From a virus, in the IMG/VR virus record IMGVR_UViG_3300011118_000005, positions 2,682 through 66,681 of that record: DNA of 64,000 nucleotides; one strand, given 5' to 3'. The notes under the pieces were generated by a model. That model did no database searches. It had not been told where the DNA came from and saw only the letters and a list, made by a program, of their open reading frames with translations. This document shows, in pieces, positions 979 to 17,786 of this stretch (positions are counted from its first letter, which is position 1; each line of letters begins with the position of its first letter). The translations under genes were made by a program, and so were the position numbers.

Positions 979-998
979 AGTTCTCTCCTAAGTTAAAG

Positions 999-1315
999 TG
1001 GAGGCGTGGGGAATCGAACCCCAGTGCCGTAATCTCTCCATGTGAGCGTCTACAAGTTTGTCTGCTAACCGCAGCGGCTCGGTGGCCACCTTGAGCGGCT
1101 TACTTTAAGTTACCTGACAGCCGCAGTCAGGACCGAGCCACATTGGTGACGGGCATCAGAGGCGTTGTGGCGACCCCTCTGGACCCGGCTGCTAGGCAGC
1201 GAGTGCGTAGTTTGCTTCAGCGCTTGAAGGTTCTGGTCGGCTTTTTAAGTGGCCCGCTGACCAACCACTACTTGCAACTCACACTTTGACAATCCGGTCG
1301 ATACCAGTCGCCCCC
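999..1315 (-). ncRNA. ssrA: tmRNA, tag peptide (A)AEANYALAA
   Basis: 5' GGGGGCG pairs with 3' CGCCTCC-A including a G3.U Ala determinant; T-arm TGGGG-TTCGATT-CCCCA; internal frame GCT GAA GCA AAC TAC GCA CTC GCT GCC TAG at 1221-1192; CCA not fully encoded. Confidence 0.95.
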
Positions 1316-3963: not shown

Positions 3964-4530
3964 CTAACTTCGCTTCCTCTCGATTATGTTGTGCCCAGGG
4001 CAATCTTTCAGGTACCAAAAAAACTCATCAGCGATCCAGGGCCGATAGTCGCCCAGGTAGCTCTTGGCGTGGTCCACCCCCACGTCCATTGAGCGGCGTC
4101 CAGGAAGGCCCAGCGACATACATGCCTCATATACCGCATTGTGGTGGACGTGTCCGTAGGCGTGATATGTGCCGTAGTGGCAGCGGTCCCAGTAGGCCGT
4201 AGGGTAGTGGCAGCACCAGACTCGCTTGTCTCCGACTTTGATCATCTTCTGTTGCCACACATTGCCACCGAAGACCGCGCGGGTCTTACGCTCGTTGTCA
4301 TGGTTTCCCAAGATGAAGAACGTATGTCGGCACCTGATTTGAGGACGCCAGCGCCCAGGCTTCTTGTAGGCGAAGTCTCCCAGAATCACTAGCGTATCAT
4401 TTCGGTCAACGTGACTGTTAATCTGGTCCAGGAGATGCTCATCGTGCTGTTTGCAATCCACGAATTGTGGCCTAGTCTCCTTGACTAGGCCCTCACAATT
4501 GAAATGTGTGTCGCTGGTGAACCAGATCAT
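3964..4530 (-). CDS. calcineurin-like metallophosphoesterase
   Basis: SDTH, LGD, GNHD, HYP, YGHVH motifs. Confidence 0.9.
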   Translation of the reverse strand: MIWFTSDTHFNCEGLVKETRPQFVDCKQHDEHLLDQINSHVDRNDTLVILGDFAYKKPGRWRPQIRCRHTFFILGNHDNERKTRAVFGGNVWQQKMIKVGDKRVWCCHYPTAYWDRCHYGTYHAYGHVHHNAVYEACMSLGLPGRRSMDVGVDHAKSYLGDYRPWIADEFFWYLKDCPGHNIIERKRS

Positions 4531-4952
4531 GCTTCTTCTCTCGGCAGTCTTAATCGCTGTCGCAATTGTTCGATAAGTATCTTAGACGATGGCTCATAAA
4601 CCCAGCCAAAAGCTAACAAGAACTTTAGCATCTTTTCATGTAGTTCAGCGGTTGGCATCCTTTTAGGTAGTTTAATAGGTGGATCTCCTGTTACCTTATA
4701 GGTTTTTACTTTCATGCCGGAGTTCGGGTCTGTCTTGACGCCAGTAGTCTTTAGGACACCCATCAACTCTAACTCTCGCACACGGGGCGCTATCCTGCGG
4801 AAGTCTGTAGGCACTCTTCCAAGGACTCCGCAAACATCGGCTTGAGAAAAATTCTCCGGCAGCTTGCAGGCACACTCCAGGACTTTTGCTCGGGCCTTTG
4901 ATATGCGACCATCAGATATTGCTTCGTAATATGCCTCAATTGAAGTATTCAT
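4527..4952 (-). CDS. winged-helix DNA-binding protein (paralogue of 9973-10383)
   Basis: MNTSIEAY start; PRVRELELMGVL wHTH-like motif. Confidence 0.6.
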   Translation of the reverse strand: MNTSIEAYYEAISDGRISKARAKVLECACKLPENFSQADVCGVLGRVPTDFRRIAPRVRELELMGVLKTTGVKTDPNSGMKVKTYKVTGDPPIKLPKRMPTAELHEKMLKFLLAFGWVYEPSSKILIEQLRQRLRLPREEA

Positions 4953-11157: not shown

Positions 11158-12741
11158 TCAAGACTTGGCAAATTCTTCCATCACTTTAGGCACCGCCGAA
11201 TCGAATCCCACTACATCCAACATTCCTGGATCATTCGGATCAGCGATAGAGAAGTCGTTAGCGACCATACCGAAAACAATCAGCTTGGAGTCAATGCCCA
11301 TTGCCTGCCGGTATTCTTCGAGAGCAACGTGTGGATGCTTACGACCGGCCCAGGTCTCATTATCGGTATAGACACAAAATACGTCAACCGGAATCTTGTG
11401 CTCTAAGGCGTGAACCATTGGCAATGCACAGTCTGTGCTATCAAATCGCAAATTACTTATCTTTTTAAGCACAGTTTGCAAGCCGTCATTTGGCAGGATG
11501 CCAAGGTCATGAAATGTACTGCCAAAGCCGAAGGCATAAGCCTGCGGCTCAGTACGATAGGCAACCATTGCCATGCACCCTGCTGCCATAGCACATGTCA
11601 CTGGCGAGTTATTTATGTTGTGGAATGTCATAGAGCCAGACACATCGATCCCTAGCAGGAATCGTTTATTCGTCGCAGTCAATGCGCCGAATGAGGAGTA
11701 AAACGCCGCATCCAGTGCGTTGATTATATTCTGGTCTGGGGTCCAAGACAGGCTCCCACGGAAGCCTGTTCCCTGTTTGTAGGTAGCAAGAGCCAGAAGA
11801 ATCGAGAACGGGTGCAACCGCCCCTTGCGGACAAACTCTTCATCACGCAACCGCATAGTGACTTGGTTGGAAGCATCAGACAATGGCGACAGGAGACCTA
11901 GACTGGTCATTTTGCCCAGGTTGCGGAGCATAGCCGTAGCTGGCATATTCTGCAACAGAGCATCCCAGACTTGCGGGCTGTTCAGTGCCTCTGTAGGCAA
12001 GTGCTCCCGAACTAAACCGTAAGCGCGGATCAAGGCGACAATATCGGCACAGTCGGTGGCCCCTTTGGCTAACTCGACACCCTCAAGAAGCGTATTAGGA
12101 TAATCCAATTCCCTGGCAATAGACCACTTGTCATACTGAGTGACATACTTGAGCACGTCATTCAGCCCAGGATTGTCGGTCTTTGGGTGTGCTAGACGCA
12201 GCACATCACGATGCGACCAGCCACCTCGCTGTGCGTATTTGGTGACTTGCATCGCAAGTTGCCTTGGAGACTTGTCGAGATACCAGTCGGACACCGCGCG
12301 ACGGAGTCCAGTGCCCCAGCCTCGAAGTTCATTCACAGCATCAACAAACTGAAAAAGATGGGTACCGATTCGACACACCTGATTAAGAACATTCAGCGCC
12401 AACCTGGACGATTTTGGATCTGCCGCAGCTAAGGCGAGCGCAAAGATAGCGGCATCATTCTTCGCAGCACGTCCATTGGTGCTAACGTCTACGATCAGAT
12501 TGACCGTGCGCTCAGGGTCGGCAGCCAAGGCTTCCTGGACACACTTAGCGTTCTCACGAGTTAGCTTCCGCTCGGAAGCGTAGTACGTACCGCCCTCGCA
12601 ACCAAGAATCAGGAACCGTTCCATACGCTGGAACACGTCCACTTGAAAGGTGTAGCCGCCCGCCGAATTTTTAACCTGAATGTCGGAAACGGGCTCGGAC
12701 TGCGGAGTATTGGCGGCAGTGATGTGTTGAACGTAAGACAT
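11158..12741 (-). CDS. rsr: Ro60/TROVE-domain RNA-binding protein
   Basis: QVKNSAGGYTF, RFLILGCEGGTYY, TKYAQRGGWSHRDVLRLAHPK, AMLRNLGKMT, vWA MIDAS DVSGSM, YTDNETW, MLDVVGFDS. Confidence 0.97.
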   Translation of the reverse strand: MSYVQHITAANTPQSEPVSDIQVKNSAGGYTFQVDVFQRMERFLILGCEGGTYYASERKLTRENAKCVQEALAADPERTVNLIVDVSTNGRAAKNDAAIFALALAAADPKSSRLALNVLNQVCRIGTHLFQFVDAVNELRGWGTGLRRAVSDWYLDKSPRQLAMQVTKYAQRGGWSHRDVLRLAHPKTDNPGLNDVLKYVTQYDKWSIARELDYPNTLLEGVELAKGATDCADIVALIRAYGLVREHLPTEALNSPQVWDALLQNMPATAMLRNLGKMTSLGLLSPLSDASNQVTMRLRDEEFVRKGRLHPFSILLALATYKQGTGFRGSLSWTPDQNIINALDAAFYSSFGALTATNKRFLLGIDVSGSMTFHNINNSPVTCAMAAGCMAMVAYRTEPQAYAFGFGSTFHDLGILPNDGLQTVLKKISNLRFDSTDCALPMVHALEHKIPVDVFCVYTDNETWAGRKHPHVALEEYRQAMGIDSKLIVFGMVANDFSIADPNDPGMLDVVGFDSAVPKVMEEFAKS

Positions 12742-12771
12742 GTCGACCCTTTCAAAAGGTTAGAATTATTA

Positions 12772-13014
12772 TTAGCCCAGAGCACCCCAGTCAAAGCCGT
12801 GCTCGAAAGATACCATGCCGTTTTCCTCGGCCCATTTCTTCAAGTGGTAGGCTTCACTTTCAAAATAAAACCTCTCACCTGGATTGTCCGGATGCTCGGC
12901 TGGCAGCCTACCTTCAATGCAAACAGTGTCGGCGGTATCATTGCACACTCGGCGATGAGTGAAGCCTTCCCCGTCAGTCACTGCAACTACATAAAAATCA
13001 GGTACTTTATTCAT
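12772..13014 (-). CDS. hypothetical protein between the Y RNA cluster and rsr
   Basis: 80-aa ORF with AGGAG RBS. Confidence 0.6.
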   Translation of the reverse strand: MNKVPDFYVVAVTDGEGFTHRRVCNDTADTVCIEGRLPAEHPDNPGERFYFESEAYHLKKWAEENGMVSFEHGFDWGALG

Positions 13015-13032
13015 CTATACTCCTAAATAAAA

Positions 13033-13094
13033 AGAGGCAAGTTAGTGATTAAGGAAAAGTATTTTAGCCAAATAACCCTTAATCTTCGGCCTCT
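13033..13094 (-). ncRNA. mini Y RNA (copy C)
   Basis: AGAG-GCCGAA-GATTAAGG-GTTAT-loop-CCTTAATC-ACTA-ACTTGC-CTCT; bulged-C Ro-binding helix; upstream of rsr. Confidence 0.8.
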
Positions 13095-13096
13095 AG

Positions 13097-13225
13097 CGGT
13101 GGGGGCTGGAATCGAACCAGCGACCTCCAGTTCCGATAAATAACCCACAGCCACCGGCCTCCGCGAGAGGCAAGTTTTCGGTAGTGGATAAATACTGGCG
13201 CTCTCCCAATCTGAGCTACTCCACC
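13097..13225 (-). ncRNA. tRNA-like Y RNA (YrlA-related) with a 62-nt Y module replacing the anticodon loop
   Basis: Acceptor GGTGGAG/CCCCACC-G, D arm GCTC/GAGC, anticodon stem CCAGT/ACTGG, T arm GCTGG-TTCGATT-CCAGC; insert contains ACTTGCCTC-TCGCG-GAGGCCGG...GGGTTAT. Confidence 0.85.
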
Positions 13226-13229
13226 AAAA

Positions 13230-13299
13230 ACGAAGGCAAGTTGGTGACTAAGGGGTAGGTAATTGATATTCATGATAACCCTTAATCTTCGGCCTTCGT
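13230..13299 (-). ncRNA. mini Y RNA (copy B)
   Basis: ACGAAG-GCCGAA-GATTAAGGG-TTATC-loop-CCCTTAGTC-ACCA-ACTTGC-CTTCGT. Confidence 0.8.
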
Positions 13300-13309
13300 G
13301 TATTATATT

Positions 13310-13371
13310 GGTGGCAAGTTAGTGACCAAGGGGTGTCGTAGTTGGAAGATAACCCTTGATCTTCGGCCACC
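13310..13371 (-). ncRNA. mini Y RNA (copy A)
   Basis: GGTG-GCCGAA-GATCAAGGG-TTATC-loop-CCCTTGGTC-ACTA-ACTTGC-CACC. Confidence 0.8.
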
Positions 13372-13381
13372 GTATACTAAT

Positions 13382-13410
13382 ATTATACTTTCCAGGAATC
13401 AGTTTGTCAA
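13382..13410 (-). promoter_or_regulatory. consensus sigma70 promoter of the Y RNA-rsr unit
   Basis: TTGACA (13410-13405)-17bp-TATAAT (13387-13382), 10 nt upstream of the first Y RNA. Confidence 0.85.
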
Positions 13411-14085
13411 GAACTTTACGCCACATTTTTTCATAATTTCAAAAACCGGGCCGGGGTCAGATCCATCATAGACCTCTTTTGCATCCCAGTCTTCAATGGC
13501 TTGATTGTAGAAAACTTCATCGATAGCCCACTTATCTAGGCCATTGTAGCGAGTAATGTCGTACCGTTGTCCATTGGGCAACTCTATCGCCCAGATCGTC
13601 ATTTCTTTGCCGTTAAAAGCTGGAAGACTCATTGATAAGTATCCTTTATTTCTCTGTAAAGATCAGCCTGCATACTTTGAGCCTCAGCGAGAGCCAATTT
13701 AAGGTCCGACACAGTGAGTTTAAGATTGGTTACTTCTTCCTTCAACTCTGTGTTCTCTTGCTTTAAGGTTTCATAGTTATGCTTGTAAACTTTCAGTACC
13801 TCAGCCTCTACGGTATCTCTCTTTACAAAAAACATGGTTAACCCCTATGAAGATGATCACGATAAAAGCTATTGGTATCTTTCAATTCTTCTCGAAGGTC
13901 GTCTCGTTCCTTCTTCAGAGTATCAATGTCGCCTCTAGCGTCAGCCAAGTCACATCGAAGCTCGAAGTTTTTCTTCTCTAAATCGGCGATTTCTTTCCGA
14001 TCATTCTTATGAACCAATTGGTACTCGTCCCACACTTCCTGACGCAGTATCACAATCGGTGAACCATCTATGTCTGTACTCGGCA

Positions 14086-16501: not shown

Positions 16502-17572
16502 TTATTCGTCATCCCTAGCCCCTTTCCGACTCCGGTAATCCACGCTTACCGATTTCAGAATTATGCGGTTTCCACGGTAGTCAATTGTCTCCTTGACTGG
16601 CTTGATAACGCACCCTTCGCGGCCCTTGAACTTACACCTCACCTCCTCGAATTTTGTATTGCCGTATGTGTACTCATCGACTTTCTCCTTTGAGAACGGC
16701 CCACGATAAAGCTCTGGAACCATAGGAATCCCATGCGACGAGCATACCAAACACATATCATTATAGTCCATGTATTTTCCGTCTATCGAGATATCGAACA
16801 CACGCATCTGTGGCGTCTCGATTCCGTAATCCAAATCCTGGATACCAGGACCGAAGATTTCACCATAAACAACTGCGCCTTCTGACGCATGTAGGCTGGA
16901 TAGCAAGCCTTCAATTTCATGTGTCATGTATTTCCAATAGAGTCCAGGCCCCTCCTTACGTCGAATCTTGTGTGAGCCAGCGGCGTAGTTCCAAACATGG
17001 CCATCCGGTGTATAGTCCAGGATCAAGCCAAGTCTCACATTGGTCCCATGAATCTTTTCGGTGATTACCACCATGATCCCATCCTCGATGAGGTTTGGAT
17101 ACCGCTGAAAAGATTCAATGTTAGTGTACCTCGGAAAATTGTACGATTCCTGCTCAGCGTCTCCGGCACCAACACGCACAGGAGGGATGTACTTCTTGGC
17201 ACCGAAGTAGTCAGTGGCATCCCGGCCCCACTCGCCCGGCCCATTGATCTGCTCGCCAAATTCATGTACCGGAACCAGGAAGCCATGACTCGGCAGCCCA
17301 CGGAGACGGCAGGCCCCAACTCGACATTGGCTCTTACCCTTGTCTCCTGGAAACGTAGCGTGCTTGAGATACTTCTCCACGCCCAGCTTGATTGCCACCT
17401 CTTCGGGAAGCAAGATATCTGGAGGGAAGTAAACAGCGGCATCACCAACCTTAAAATTATCTCGGCCAGTGACTACTTGGTATCCAAGCACCTGAACCAC
17501 ATCCAAACGATCAGCATCAGGATGGTGCTTGACCTCATTGACTCGCTCTACGCTAATTATCGTTTTGCTCAT
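16502..17572 (-). CDS. ATP-dependent RNA ligase, DRB0094-type
   Basis: N-terminal HPDADRLD...RLRGLPSHG domain; TEKIHGTN motif I, YGEIFG, VFDI, REGCVIK, ILKSVS. Confidence 0.9.
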   Translation of the reverse strand: MSKTIISVERVNEVKHHPDADRLDVVQVLGYQVVTGRDNFKVGDAAVYFPPDILLPEEVAIKLGVEKYLKHATFPGDKGKSQCRVGACRLRGLPSHGFLVPVHEFGEQINGPGEWGRDATDYFGAKKYIPPVRVGAGDAEQESYNFPRYTNIESFQRYPNLIEDGIMVVITEKIHGTNVRLGLILDYTPDGHVWNYAAGSHKIRRKEGPGLYWKYMTHEIEGLLSSLHASEGAVVYGEIFGPGIQDLDYGIETPQMRVFDISIDGKYMDYNDMCLVCSSHGIPMVPELYRGPFSKEKVDEYTYGNTKFEEVRCKFKGREGCVIKPVKETIDYRGNRIILKSVSVDYRSRKGARDDE

Positions 17573-17786
17573 TGTCCTCTTCCTCCAAGCAGCACATGGC
17601 CTCTTGAAATTCTCGGTCTTCTGAGAAAAAGTCTCCGTCATCCCAGTCGTGTGACCTCAGCGACCGAATCAAATCCTCATAGATCCCTTCGCGAAGCATT
17701 GGGCTATCTACCCACATATTGATAGACTTAATCATATCTTCAGCTATATCATGCCCGCCTTGCCATCCCATTTTGCTCTCCTTTGA

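Follow-up and report, generated by a model that had tools for sequence, protein, structure and literature searches.

A tRNA-shaped Y RNA carries a permuted Y module in place of the anticodon loop beside a phage Ro60 gene

Upstream of a Ro60 gene in a viral contig lies an element that has the frame of a tRNA and carries a circularly permuted Y-RNA module in place of the anticodon loop. The window, i.e., the whole stretch of DNA analysed here, comprises 64 kb of one 66.7-kb contig. The element is located on the minus strand, which also carries 87 of 107 ORFs. We put the probability at roughly 75% that the element is a conserved non-coding Y RNA gene of the YrlA kind that has the gene order of a tRNA, is processed like a tRNA, and binds Ro60 via a capped helix. 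At the gene level, it is a circular permutation of the published YrlA, in which the order is Ro 5′ strand, GGUUAYC, small hairpin, T arm, looped acceptor, D arm, and Ro 3′ strand (Chen 2014; Wang 2018). It belongs to a widespread topological variant of the YrlA class of Y RNAs and is not a YrlA in the sense in which that family has been defined and modelled. The open order apparently has not been described before. It does not appear in the available parts of Chen 2014 (supplements 3–5 included), Wang 2018, the phiLo Ro60 paper, and the 2026 tRNA-mimic preprint, or in full-text searches; a mention in Y-RNA reviews is possible.

Table 1. Features of the array, the tRNA-shaped element, and the Ro60 locus (window coordinates)
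Feature	Position	Strand	Evidence or remark
Predicted sigma-70 promoter	13382..13410	−	TTGACA, 17-nt spacer, TATAAT; consensus match 12/12
Plain Y-RNA hairpin a	13308..13374	−	RF01656 26.2 bits; R3 88.7 bits; hairpin in array MFE
Plain Y-RNA hairpin b	13230..13300	−	RF01656 37.6 bits; R3 80.6 bits
tRNA-shaped Y RNA (the element)	13097..13225	−	RF00005; ARAGORN insert mode; own models R1 and R2; covariation in 22 relatives
Acceptor stem strands	13219–13225 / 13098–13104	−	
D arm	13200–13216	−	
Anticodon-stem strands	13194–13198 / 13127–13131	−	
Permuted Y module (62-nt insert)	13132..13193	−	halves align to neighbours, order reversed
Upper stem of insert	13184–13189 / 13143–13148	−	base-pair probabilities 0.8–0.93
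Ro-type helix (lower stem) of insert	13167–13173 / 13154–13161	−	bulged C at 13156; probability 0.99
Cap loop UCGCG of insert	13162–13166	−	
GGGUUAU motif of insert	about 13140–13146	−	
Variable loop AGGUC	13122–13126	−	
T arm	13105–13121	−	
Discriminator G	13097	−	
3′ trailer CUA	13094..13096	−	C74 encoded, CCA not; read directly
Plain Y-RNA hairpin c	13031..13098	−	RF01656 30.1 bits; R3 81.7 bits
80-aa ORF between array and Ro60	12772..13014	−	AGGAG upstream
Ro60 gene, 527 aa, TROVE + vWA	11158..12741	−	Pfam vWA_Ro60 1.6e-62, TROVE 2.2e-49

Direct reading of positions 13097–13225 gives an acceptor stem of 7 bp (GGUGGAG/CCCCACC) with one A-C mismatch, an anticodon stem of 5 bp (CCAGU/ACUGG), and the T loop UUCGAUU. 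All tRNA core and elbow positions are in place, namely U8, A14, G15/C48, G18G19, G53-C61, and the UUCGA of the T loop. In a 1-kb Rfam search, RF00005 scores the element at 45.6 bits (E 2.5e-8; gathering score 29 bits) with a span of exactly 13097–13225, and the alignment skips 59 nt within the anticodon loop. Every feature listed in the first-pass annotation of this DNA was found again at the coordinates given there, on the minus strand. The anticodon-stem strands are 62 nt apart instead of enclosing a 7-nt loop; therefore, the element is no decoding tRNA. As it has no anticodon loop, the earlier suggestion that it might act as a decoy for anticodon nucleases is unsupported. With inserts allowed, ARAGORN reports the element as the sole tRNA-like call in the 66.7-kb contig besides the tmRNA, and the intron mode labels it tRNA-Arg. 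Default ARAGORN and a whole-window Rfam run at gathering thresholds do not report the element; it is detected only with the laxer filters of the short Rfam search or in ARAGORN insert mode.

The first half of the insert aligns locally to the 3′ part of the neighbouring hairpins (positions 55–66 of 69 in the downstream hairpin) and the second half to their 5′ part (positions 20–29). Therefore, the order is reversed, which agrees with the reversed motif halves noted earlier. The insert runs from the motif with which the neighbours end (..AACUUGCCUC) through the UCGCG loop to the motif with which they begin (GAGGCCG...GGGUUAU). The 5′ strand of its lower Ro helix reads GCCGGUG and thereby departs from the published GNCGAAN0-1G; the helix and the bulged C are present. 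The consensus of the family described below is GCCGAAG, with a U-A pair in 48 of 89 units and a U-G pair, i.e., the G-for-A variant found in the window, in 12 of 89. The YrlA of M. smegmatis, a binder of Rsr, reads GCCGGA in the supplementary alignment of Chen 2014. The fold stability of the element is not significantly different from that of shuffled sequences (z = −0.36). The proposed structure lies 9 kcal/mol above the MFE, with a probability of 0.43 for the D arm and 0.55 for the T arm. In the MFE structure of the whole array, the U-rich leader and the acceptor 5′ strand pair with CCACUACCGAAAA of the insert (13180–13235, minus strand), which possibly represents an alternative fold of the precursor.

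The element is the third of four Y modules in an array upstream of the phage Ro60 gene. All three plain hairpins have the Y-RNA signature, which consists of a lower helix in which GGC-C-GAAG faces ACUUGCC and one C is bulged, of an upper stem, and of a loop starting with GGGUUAUC; in hairpin a, the bulged Ro-type helix is GGCCGAAG / ACUUGCC, followed by the upper stem and the GGGUUAUC loop. The hairpins were scored with RF01656, the model of nematode stem-bulge RNA (a Y homologue) with a cut-off of 38 bits, and with R3, our own plain-hairpin model. Both the plain phage hairpins and RF01656 contain GGGUUAUC and CAC(U/C)AACUUG, and the best hairpin reaches 37.6 of the 38 bits; UUAUC is thus common to the phage hairpins and an animal-derived model. 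The putative promoter, recognised by its consensus match, is located ~8 nt upstream of the first Y hairpin. The 3′ U-run of hairpin b ends directly at the 5′ end of the element, the stem of hairpin c begins 3–4 nt past the discriminator, and hairpin c is again followed by a U-run. Farther downstream, at a distance of 290 nt, the same strand carries the Ro60 gene. Its product, the presumed protein partner of the element, matches Xenopus Ro60 (PDB 1yvp, E 1.7e-130) and D. radiodurans Rsr (2nvo, E 1.6e-118). The 80-aa ORF in between has no match in Pfam or PHROG and no tblastn match in 182 related loci.

The contig, which looks like that of a lytic phage, carries genes for a DNA polymerase, ribonucleotide reductase, thymidylate synthase, DNA and RNA ligases, a head protease, and tmRNA. 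The tmRNA is full-length (window 996–1315, minus strand; RF00023, 104.7 bits), has the tag AEANYALAA, and lies ~10 kb downstream of Ro60 on the same strand. An Rnl-type RNA ligase (16502–17641, minus strand; PF09414 plus the PHA02142 OB domain) is found 3.3 kb from the locus, and a metallophosphoesterase is encoded at 3964–4530 (minus strand); both genes are part of the early-gene block to which Ro60 belongs. Besides the RNA ligase, nothing in the contig ties the locus to tRNA repair; neither Pfam nor PHROG revealed a CCA-adding enzyme, an RtcB, or a polynucleotide kinase there. Over the region, contigs from four DNA runs either were identical in sequence or consisted of short tRNA-like fragments, and neither variants nor joints were seen. 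A DNA search of a phage collection gave only a weak Ro60 match, to Streptomyces phage Daubenski.

To follow the design beyond the window, Ro60 loci were collected from viral contigs and GTDB genomes, 182 in total and 167 after duplicate removal. In these 167 loci, ARAGORN in insert mode made 91 tRNA-shaped calls with inserts of at least 25 nt, and 90 of the 91 were on the Ro60 strand. Base-shuffled copies of the same loci gave 2 calls in total. Given this recurrence, chance is excluded. R1, a single-sequence covariance model of the window element, found 95 matches of at least 100 nt (93 unique), and its remaining matches were ordinary tRNAs. R2, a model from 22 window-type members, found 127 long matches; their first and last seven bases pair at 7/7 in 82, at 6/7 in 18, and at 5 or fewer positions in 27. 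Filtering of these matches (acceptor at least 6/7 in cis, T at least 4/5, D at least 3/4) left 90 matches, 89 of them unique, in 53 non-duplicate loci, and 31 of the 53 loci have a single unit.

The relatives score 39–52 bits on RF00005, and the Ro-helix motifs are conserved in the insert of all 89. The cap has at most 7 nt in 73 of the 89 units; it is UUCG nine times and a GNRA loop in several cases. Many phage contigs carry such units, and so do bacteria, among them Plesiocystis pacifica and MAGs of Polyangiaceae, other Myxococcota, Planctomycetota, Fimbriimonas, Longimicrobium, Gemmatimonadaceae, Chloroflexota, and Deinococcales. The Ro60 proteins of these relatives have 40–61% identity to the window Ro60, which argues against recent copies; the nearest one (61%) is from a Planctomycetota MAG, where the open form is also present. 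R3 further revealed plain Y hairpins that abut the tRNA-shaped units with spacers of 0–10 nt in at least six other phage loci (L003, L008, L043, L047, L076, and L080).

Covariation was assessed in a MAFFT alignment of the 22 window-type members, which had been hand-picked for the anticodon stem. In this alignment, 87.8% of the cells are paired compared with 65.2% after shuffling (0 of 500 shuffles as high) and 36–46% with the partner slid; by stem, the acceptor reaches 97.4%, the anticodon stem 99.1%, the T arm 95.5%, and the lower Ro helix 87.7%. Paired percentages are inflated by selection, since the choice of the 22 rows raises the value of the anticodon stem and the 89-unit set was filtered on acceptor, T, and D pairing. 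Changes on both sides occur in 7/7 pairs of the acceptor, 5/5 of the anticodon stem, 6/7 of the lower Ro helix, and 4/5 of the T arm. Unlike the percentages, the diversity of pair types cannot be produced by row selection. For the anticodon stem, it includes CCAGU/ACUGG, ACGGU/ACCGU, GCUGU/ACAGC, CAAGU/ACUUG, AUUGU/ACAAU, AAAGA/UCUUU, and CCGAG/CUCGG. The upper Y stem is misaligned by MAFFT (54% paired); a model alignment of the family gives 77.7% for the upper stem and 92.9% for the lower helix, this alignment being fitted to the model.

YrlA (RF02553; S. Typhimurium, M. smegmatis) and the element both adjoin Ro60, the latter on the same strand, and both have a bulged Ro-type helix with a GNCG(A/G) 5′ strand and the GGUUAYC motif. 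Both also have a tRNA-like D arm, T arm, and 7-bp acceptor as a second module, with the Y stem at the position of the anticodon arm. They differ in where the RNA ends. In YrlA, the ends are in the Ro helix and the acceptor is looped, whereas the element ends at the acceptor and has its Ro helix closed by a cap, which has 3–5 nt in this form and reads UCGCG in the window, so that the acceptor strands are outermost. The first-pass annotation had drawn the same contrast with typical YrlAs, and the accounts in Chen 2014 and Wang 2018 bear it out. It had also proposed a check with the YrlA covariance model; RF02553 (cut-off 69 bits) gave no match at E up to 10 in 12700–13700. Two canonical loci (L172 and L158) score 44.2 and 39.2 bits on RF02553, and the model matches Nocardia loci, which read as the canonical closed form. 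In L021, the match is only partial and links the T arm of a unit to the D arm of the following one.

Tandem arrays of open units allow the published YrlA order to be read as spanning two neighbours. In 36 adjacent unit pairs, the acceptor pairs at 6.94/7 in cis, an average helped by the filter, vs 4.69/7 in trans, where the paralogy of the units raises pairing above random. We also surveyed 168 sources by motifs only, i.e., by D-arm and T-arm motifs followed by acceptor partner pairing of at least 6/7. This gave 62 open long units in 41 loci (9 ambiguous) and 69 closed-only units in 58 loci; therefore, both gene orders exist. The first-pass annotation had described open-acceptor versions as reportedly rare and named a Gloeobacter case; rarity does not hold in view of 41 open and 58 closed loci, and the name Gloeobacter is absent from the main text and the searched supplements of Chen 2014, where Gloeocapsa is present.

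Chen 2014 reports few YrlAs in cyanobacteria and delta-proteobacteria, some of them with a longer “acceptor stem,” and discarded matches that overlapped annotated tandem tRNAs; Table S1 of that paper places Plesiocystis YrlAs at 105262–105417 and 105422–105628. The Plesiocystis pacifica SIR-1 contig (L108) has three tRNA-shaped units at 105200–105330, 105363–105494, and 105576–105704, corresponding to 4268–4398, 4431–4562, and 4644–4772 in L108. Therefore, each published call begins inside one unit and ends inside the next. The acceptor pairs at 7/7 in cis for every unit vs 5/7 in trans. The two permuted gene orders explain the scarcity of YrlA in delta-proteobacteria in the earlier model searches.

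The published YrlAs of Caulobacter phage CcrColossus were considered as open-order examples and rejected, since they read as the canonical closed form; R3 found no plain-hairpin match in this phage. In one of its YrlAs (L183, record 109288–109117, minus strand), the T arm is succeeded by an acceptor 3′ strand, A, CCA, a UUCG-capped hairpin, the acceptor 5′ strand, and the D arm, an arrangement like that of a permuted tRNA gene. Part of this YrlA is annotated as tRNA-Gln in GenBank.

On a FastTree tree of 158 Ro60 proteins, which is a quick one with heuristic labels, the open/closed label (36 vs 53 rows) needs 12 changes compared with a shuffled mean of 28 (minimum 21); therefore, the label is clustered, yet it has switched repeatedly. 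We are thus dealing with one Y-RNA family in two circularly permuted gene orders, which alternated repeatedly along the Ro60 tree. Duplication in a tandem array with subsequent loss of the outer halves would be the obvious route for such a switch.

C74 is encoded in 69/89 family units, compared with 122/151 ordinary tRNAs from the same loci, and the full CCA in 8/89 and 34/151, respectively. U at position −1 is present in 34/89 units and 81/151 tRNAs, with a T background of 21%; in the window, the U-run is found there. The YrlA of M. smegmatis is cleaved by RNase P, CA is added after the encoded C, and the Rsr immunoprecipitate contains the two halves as major species (PMC4201824). Thus, a Ro60-bound open acceptor is a known in vivo state. 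As the plain hairpins abut the units at 0–10 nt, cuts at the tRNA ends would release the neighbours. These features and the M. smegmatis precedent indirectly support maturation like that of a tRNA (RNase P, CCA completion), which is plausible and the most likely course; as proposed in the first-pass annotation, it would also cut the array into units.

We propose the following course of events for the element. The array would be transcribed from the consensus sigma-70 promoter, with the tRNA-shaped unit as the third of four Y modules. RNase P would then cut at the 5′ end of the element, a 3′ tRNA-maturation route would trim the RNA to C74, and a CCA-adding enzyme would complete the CCA. With the same cuts, the plain Y hairpins on either side should be released. 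Once mature, the RNA (~130 nt) is predicted to bind Ro60 through the capped helix, and the tRNA body with its free acceptor end would be presented as the effector-binding end.

Other explanations of the locus were weighed against this proposal. An ordinary decoding tRNA gene with a removable intron would account for the intact tRNA frame and for the tRNA-Arg label of the ARAGORN intron mode. The introns known from bacterial tRNA genes, however, belong to group I and usually have about 200 nt or more, and the insert with its 62 nt is far shorter. The 1-kb Rfam scan gave no intron family at E up to 10, the Ro-helix motifs recur in the insert of 89 relatives, and the anticodons and intron positions given by ARAGORN differ arbitrarily among homologues. 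Together with the position next to Ro60, on its strand in all but one of the calls, this makes an intron very improbable. We give hardly any credence to a decayed tRNA pseudogene with a chance insertion and no function. Although the acceptor mismatch, the lack of an encoded CCA, and the fold z-score would fit such decay, there are compensatory changes in every stem across distant phages and bacteria, and position and strand are conserved. It is just as far-fetched that we have read a canonical YrlA in the wrong frame, with the Ro 5′ strand, T arm, closed acceptor, and a downstream D arm as the true order. In the window, the T arm is followed by a plain Y hairpin and not by a D arm, and RF02553 remains blank here at E up to 10. 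The published tandem-array calls do use the YrlA frame, and pairing of the acceptor in trans is above random, but it falls clearly behind pairing in cis in the adjacent units; moreover, 31 loci have one unit only, and in 73 of 89 units a loop of at most 7 nt caps the Ro helix.

A further possibility is that the tRNA frame is a device for processing and stability only, serving as punctuation of the array and protection against nucleases without an effector role, while Ro60 would still bind the helix. The tight spacers to flanking Y hairpins in the window and six other phage loci are consistent with it, as is the precedent of the engineered tRNA scaffold. The acceptor sequences vary freely, too, so that a common aminoacylation identity is not apparent. 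Yet the D and T arms deviate little in sequence from the tRNA consensus, closed-acceptor YrlA has retained this domain although it cannot act as punctuation there, and 31 of the 53 loci have a single unit. Hence, we regard this explanation as unlikely and retain a Y RNA gene of the YrlA kind in tRNA gene order as our preferred reading.

Several known RNAs share parts of this design. Like the predicted product of the element, the cleaved YrlA of M. smegmatis has an open 7-bp acceptor and an encoded C completed to CCA, and is bound to Ro60. Its open end, however, results from cutting a closed precursor and it consists of two pieces, whereas one continuous RNA is predicted for the element because the Ro helix is capped. 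D. radiodurans Yrn1 (RF01053) is also a Y RNA with tRNA-like T and D features in the normal tRNA order, but its Ro-binding stem, which the RNA ends form, replaces the acceptor stem (Chen 2014), while in the element the corresponding helix is in the place of the anticodon loop. RF01053 had no match in the 1-kb Rfam scan around the element.

Engineered tRNA scaffolds (Ponchon and Dardel; PMC3753655) likewise keep the acceptor, D, and T arms and have a protein-binding hairpin instead of the anticodon stem-loop. They are processed by the tRNA enzymes of the cell, are protected from nucleases, and bind their protein in E. coli (PMC3753655). These scaffolds are man-made; the element is a natural counterpart, linked to Ro60. 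Permuted tRNAs are discussed in Wang 2018.

As to gene order, circularly permuted tRNA genes and two-piece tmRNA are other cases of one RNA family with two gene orders related by permutation. Both are RNAs different from the element, and permuted tRNAs are re-joined to normal tRNAs.

The element design is present in many phages and bacteria beside Ro60 and seems to have been unrecognised so far; annotation pipelines will label such genes as odd tRNAs or pseudo-tRNAs. That the open-acceptor form is widely distributed, and that its C74 is conserved to the same degree as that of true tRNA genes, points to an importance of the acceptor end itself. Open-acceptor Y RNAs might be one-piece, CCA-ended tRNA bodies permanently tied to Ro60, whose free acceptor would be functional, i.e., charged by a synthetase, bound by EF-Tu, or recognised by CCA-adding or tRNA repair enzymes, and which would bring Ro60 and its partner exonucleases to the machinery of tRNA handling or translation. 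We consider this idea speculative and rather improbable. If it is true, the role in the phage could be to police or rescue tRNAs during infection, and a sizeable share of the published myxobacterial, perhaps also cyanobacterial, “YrlA” calls would be mis-framed across two units.

In three MAGs of Myxococcota and Chloroflexota (L128, L114, and L104), Ro60 is located within long arrays of ordinary tRNA genes (at least 20 in L128), and tRNA-shaped Y units are interspersed among them. A Deinococcaceae MAG (L115) has a Yrn1-like RNA at 1369–1489 (RF01053, 53.5 bits, below the cut-off of 80) as well as two open-acceptor units at 1908–2031 and 2059–2190, the former followed by an encoded CCA.

There is also a second architecture (L128 4355–4479, L153 1594–1718, L108 4644–4772, and others), in which the Y module lies between the D arm and a mini hairpin of 3–5 bp that directly precedes the variable loop. 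Of 34 strictly parsed cases, 19 have a 7-nt loop of the anticodon-loop-like form Y-U-NNN-R (~2 expected by chance), and 16 also have A38. The “V arm” of YrlA may thus be a vestigial anticodon arm. An extra GNRA-capped mini hairpin occurs right after the 5′ strand of the anticodon stem in some window-type units, namely in L030 (4487–4620), L008 (4915–5049), L139 (2292–2429), and L070 (4313–4447). A structured junction is suggested by GGA, which most window-type units retain immediately ahead of the 3′ strand. Three further units (L088 1192–1319, L090 2270–2415, and L119 2103–2228) have a fully paired acceptor and a T arm and are without a D arm; in L088 and L090, the GGUUAYC motif and a small hairpin replace it.
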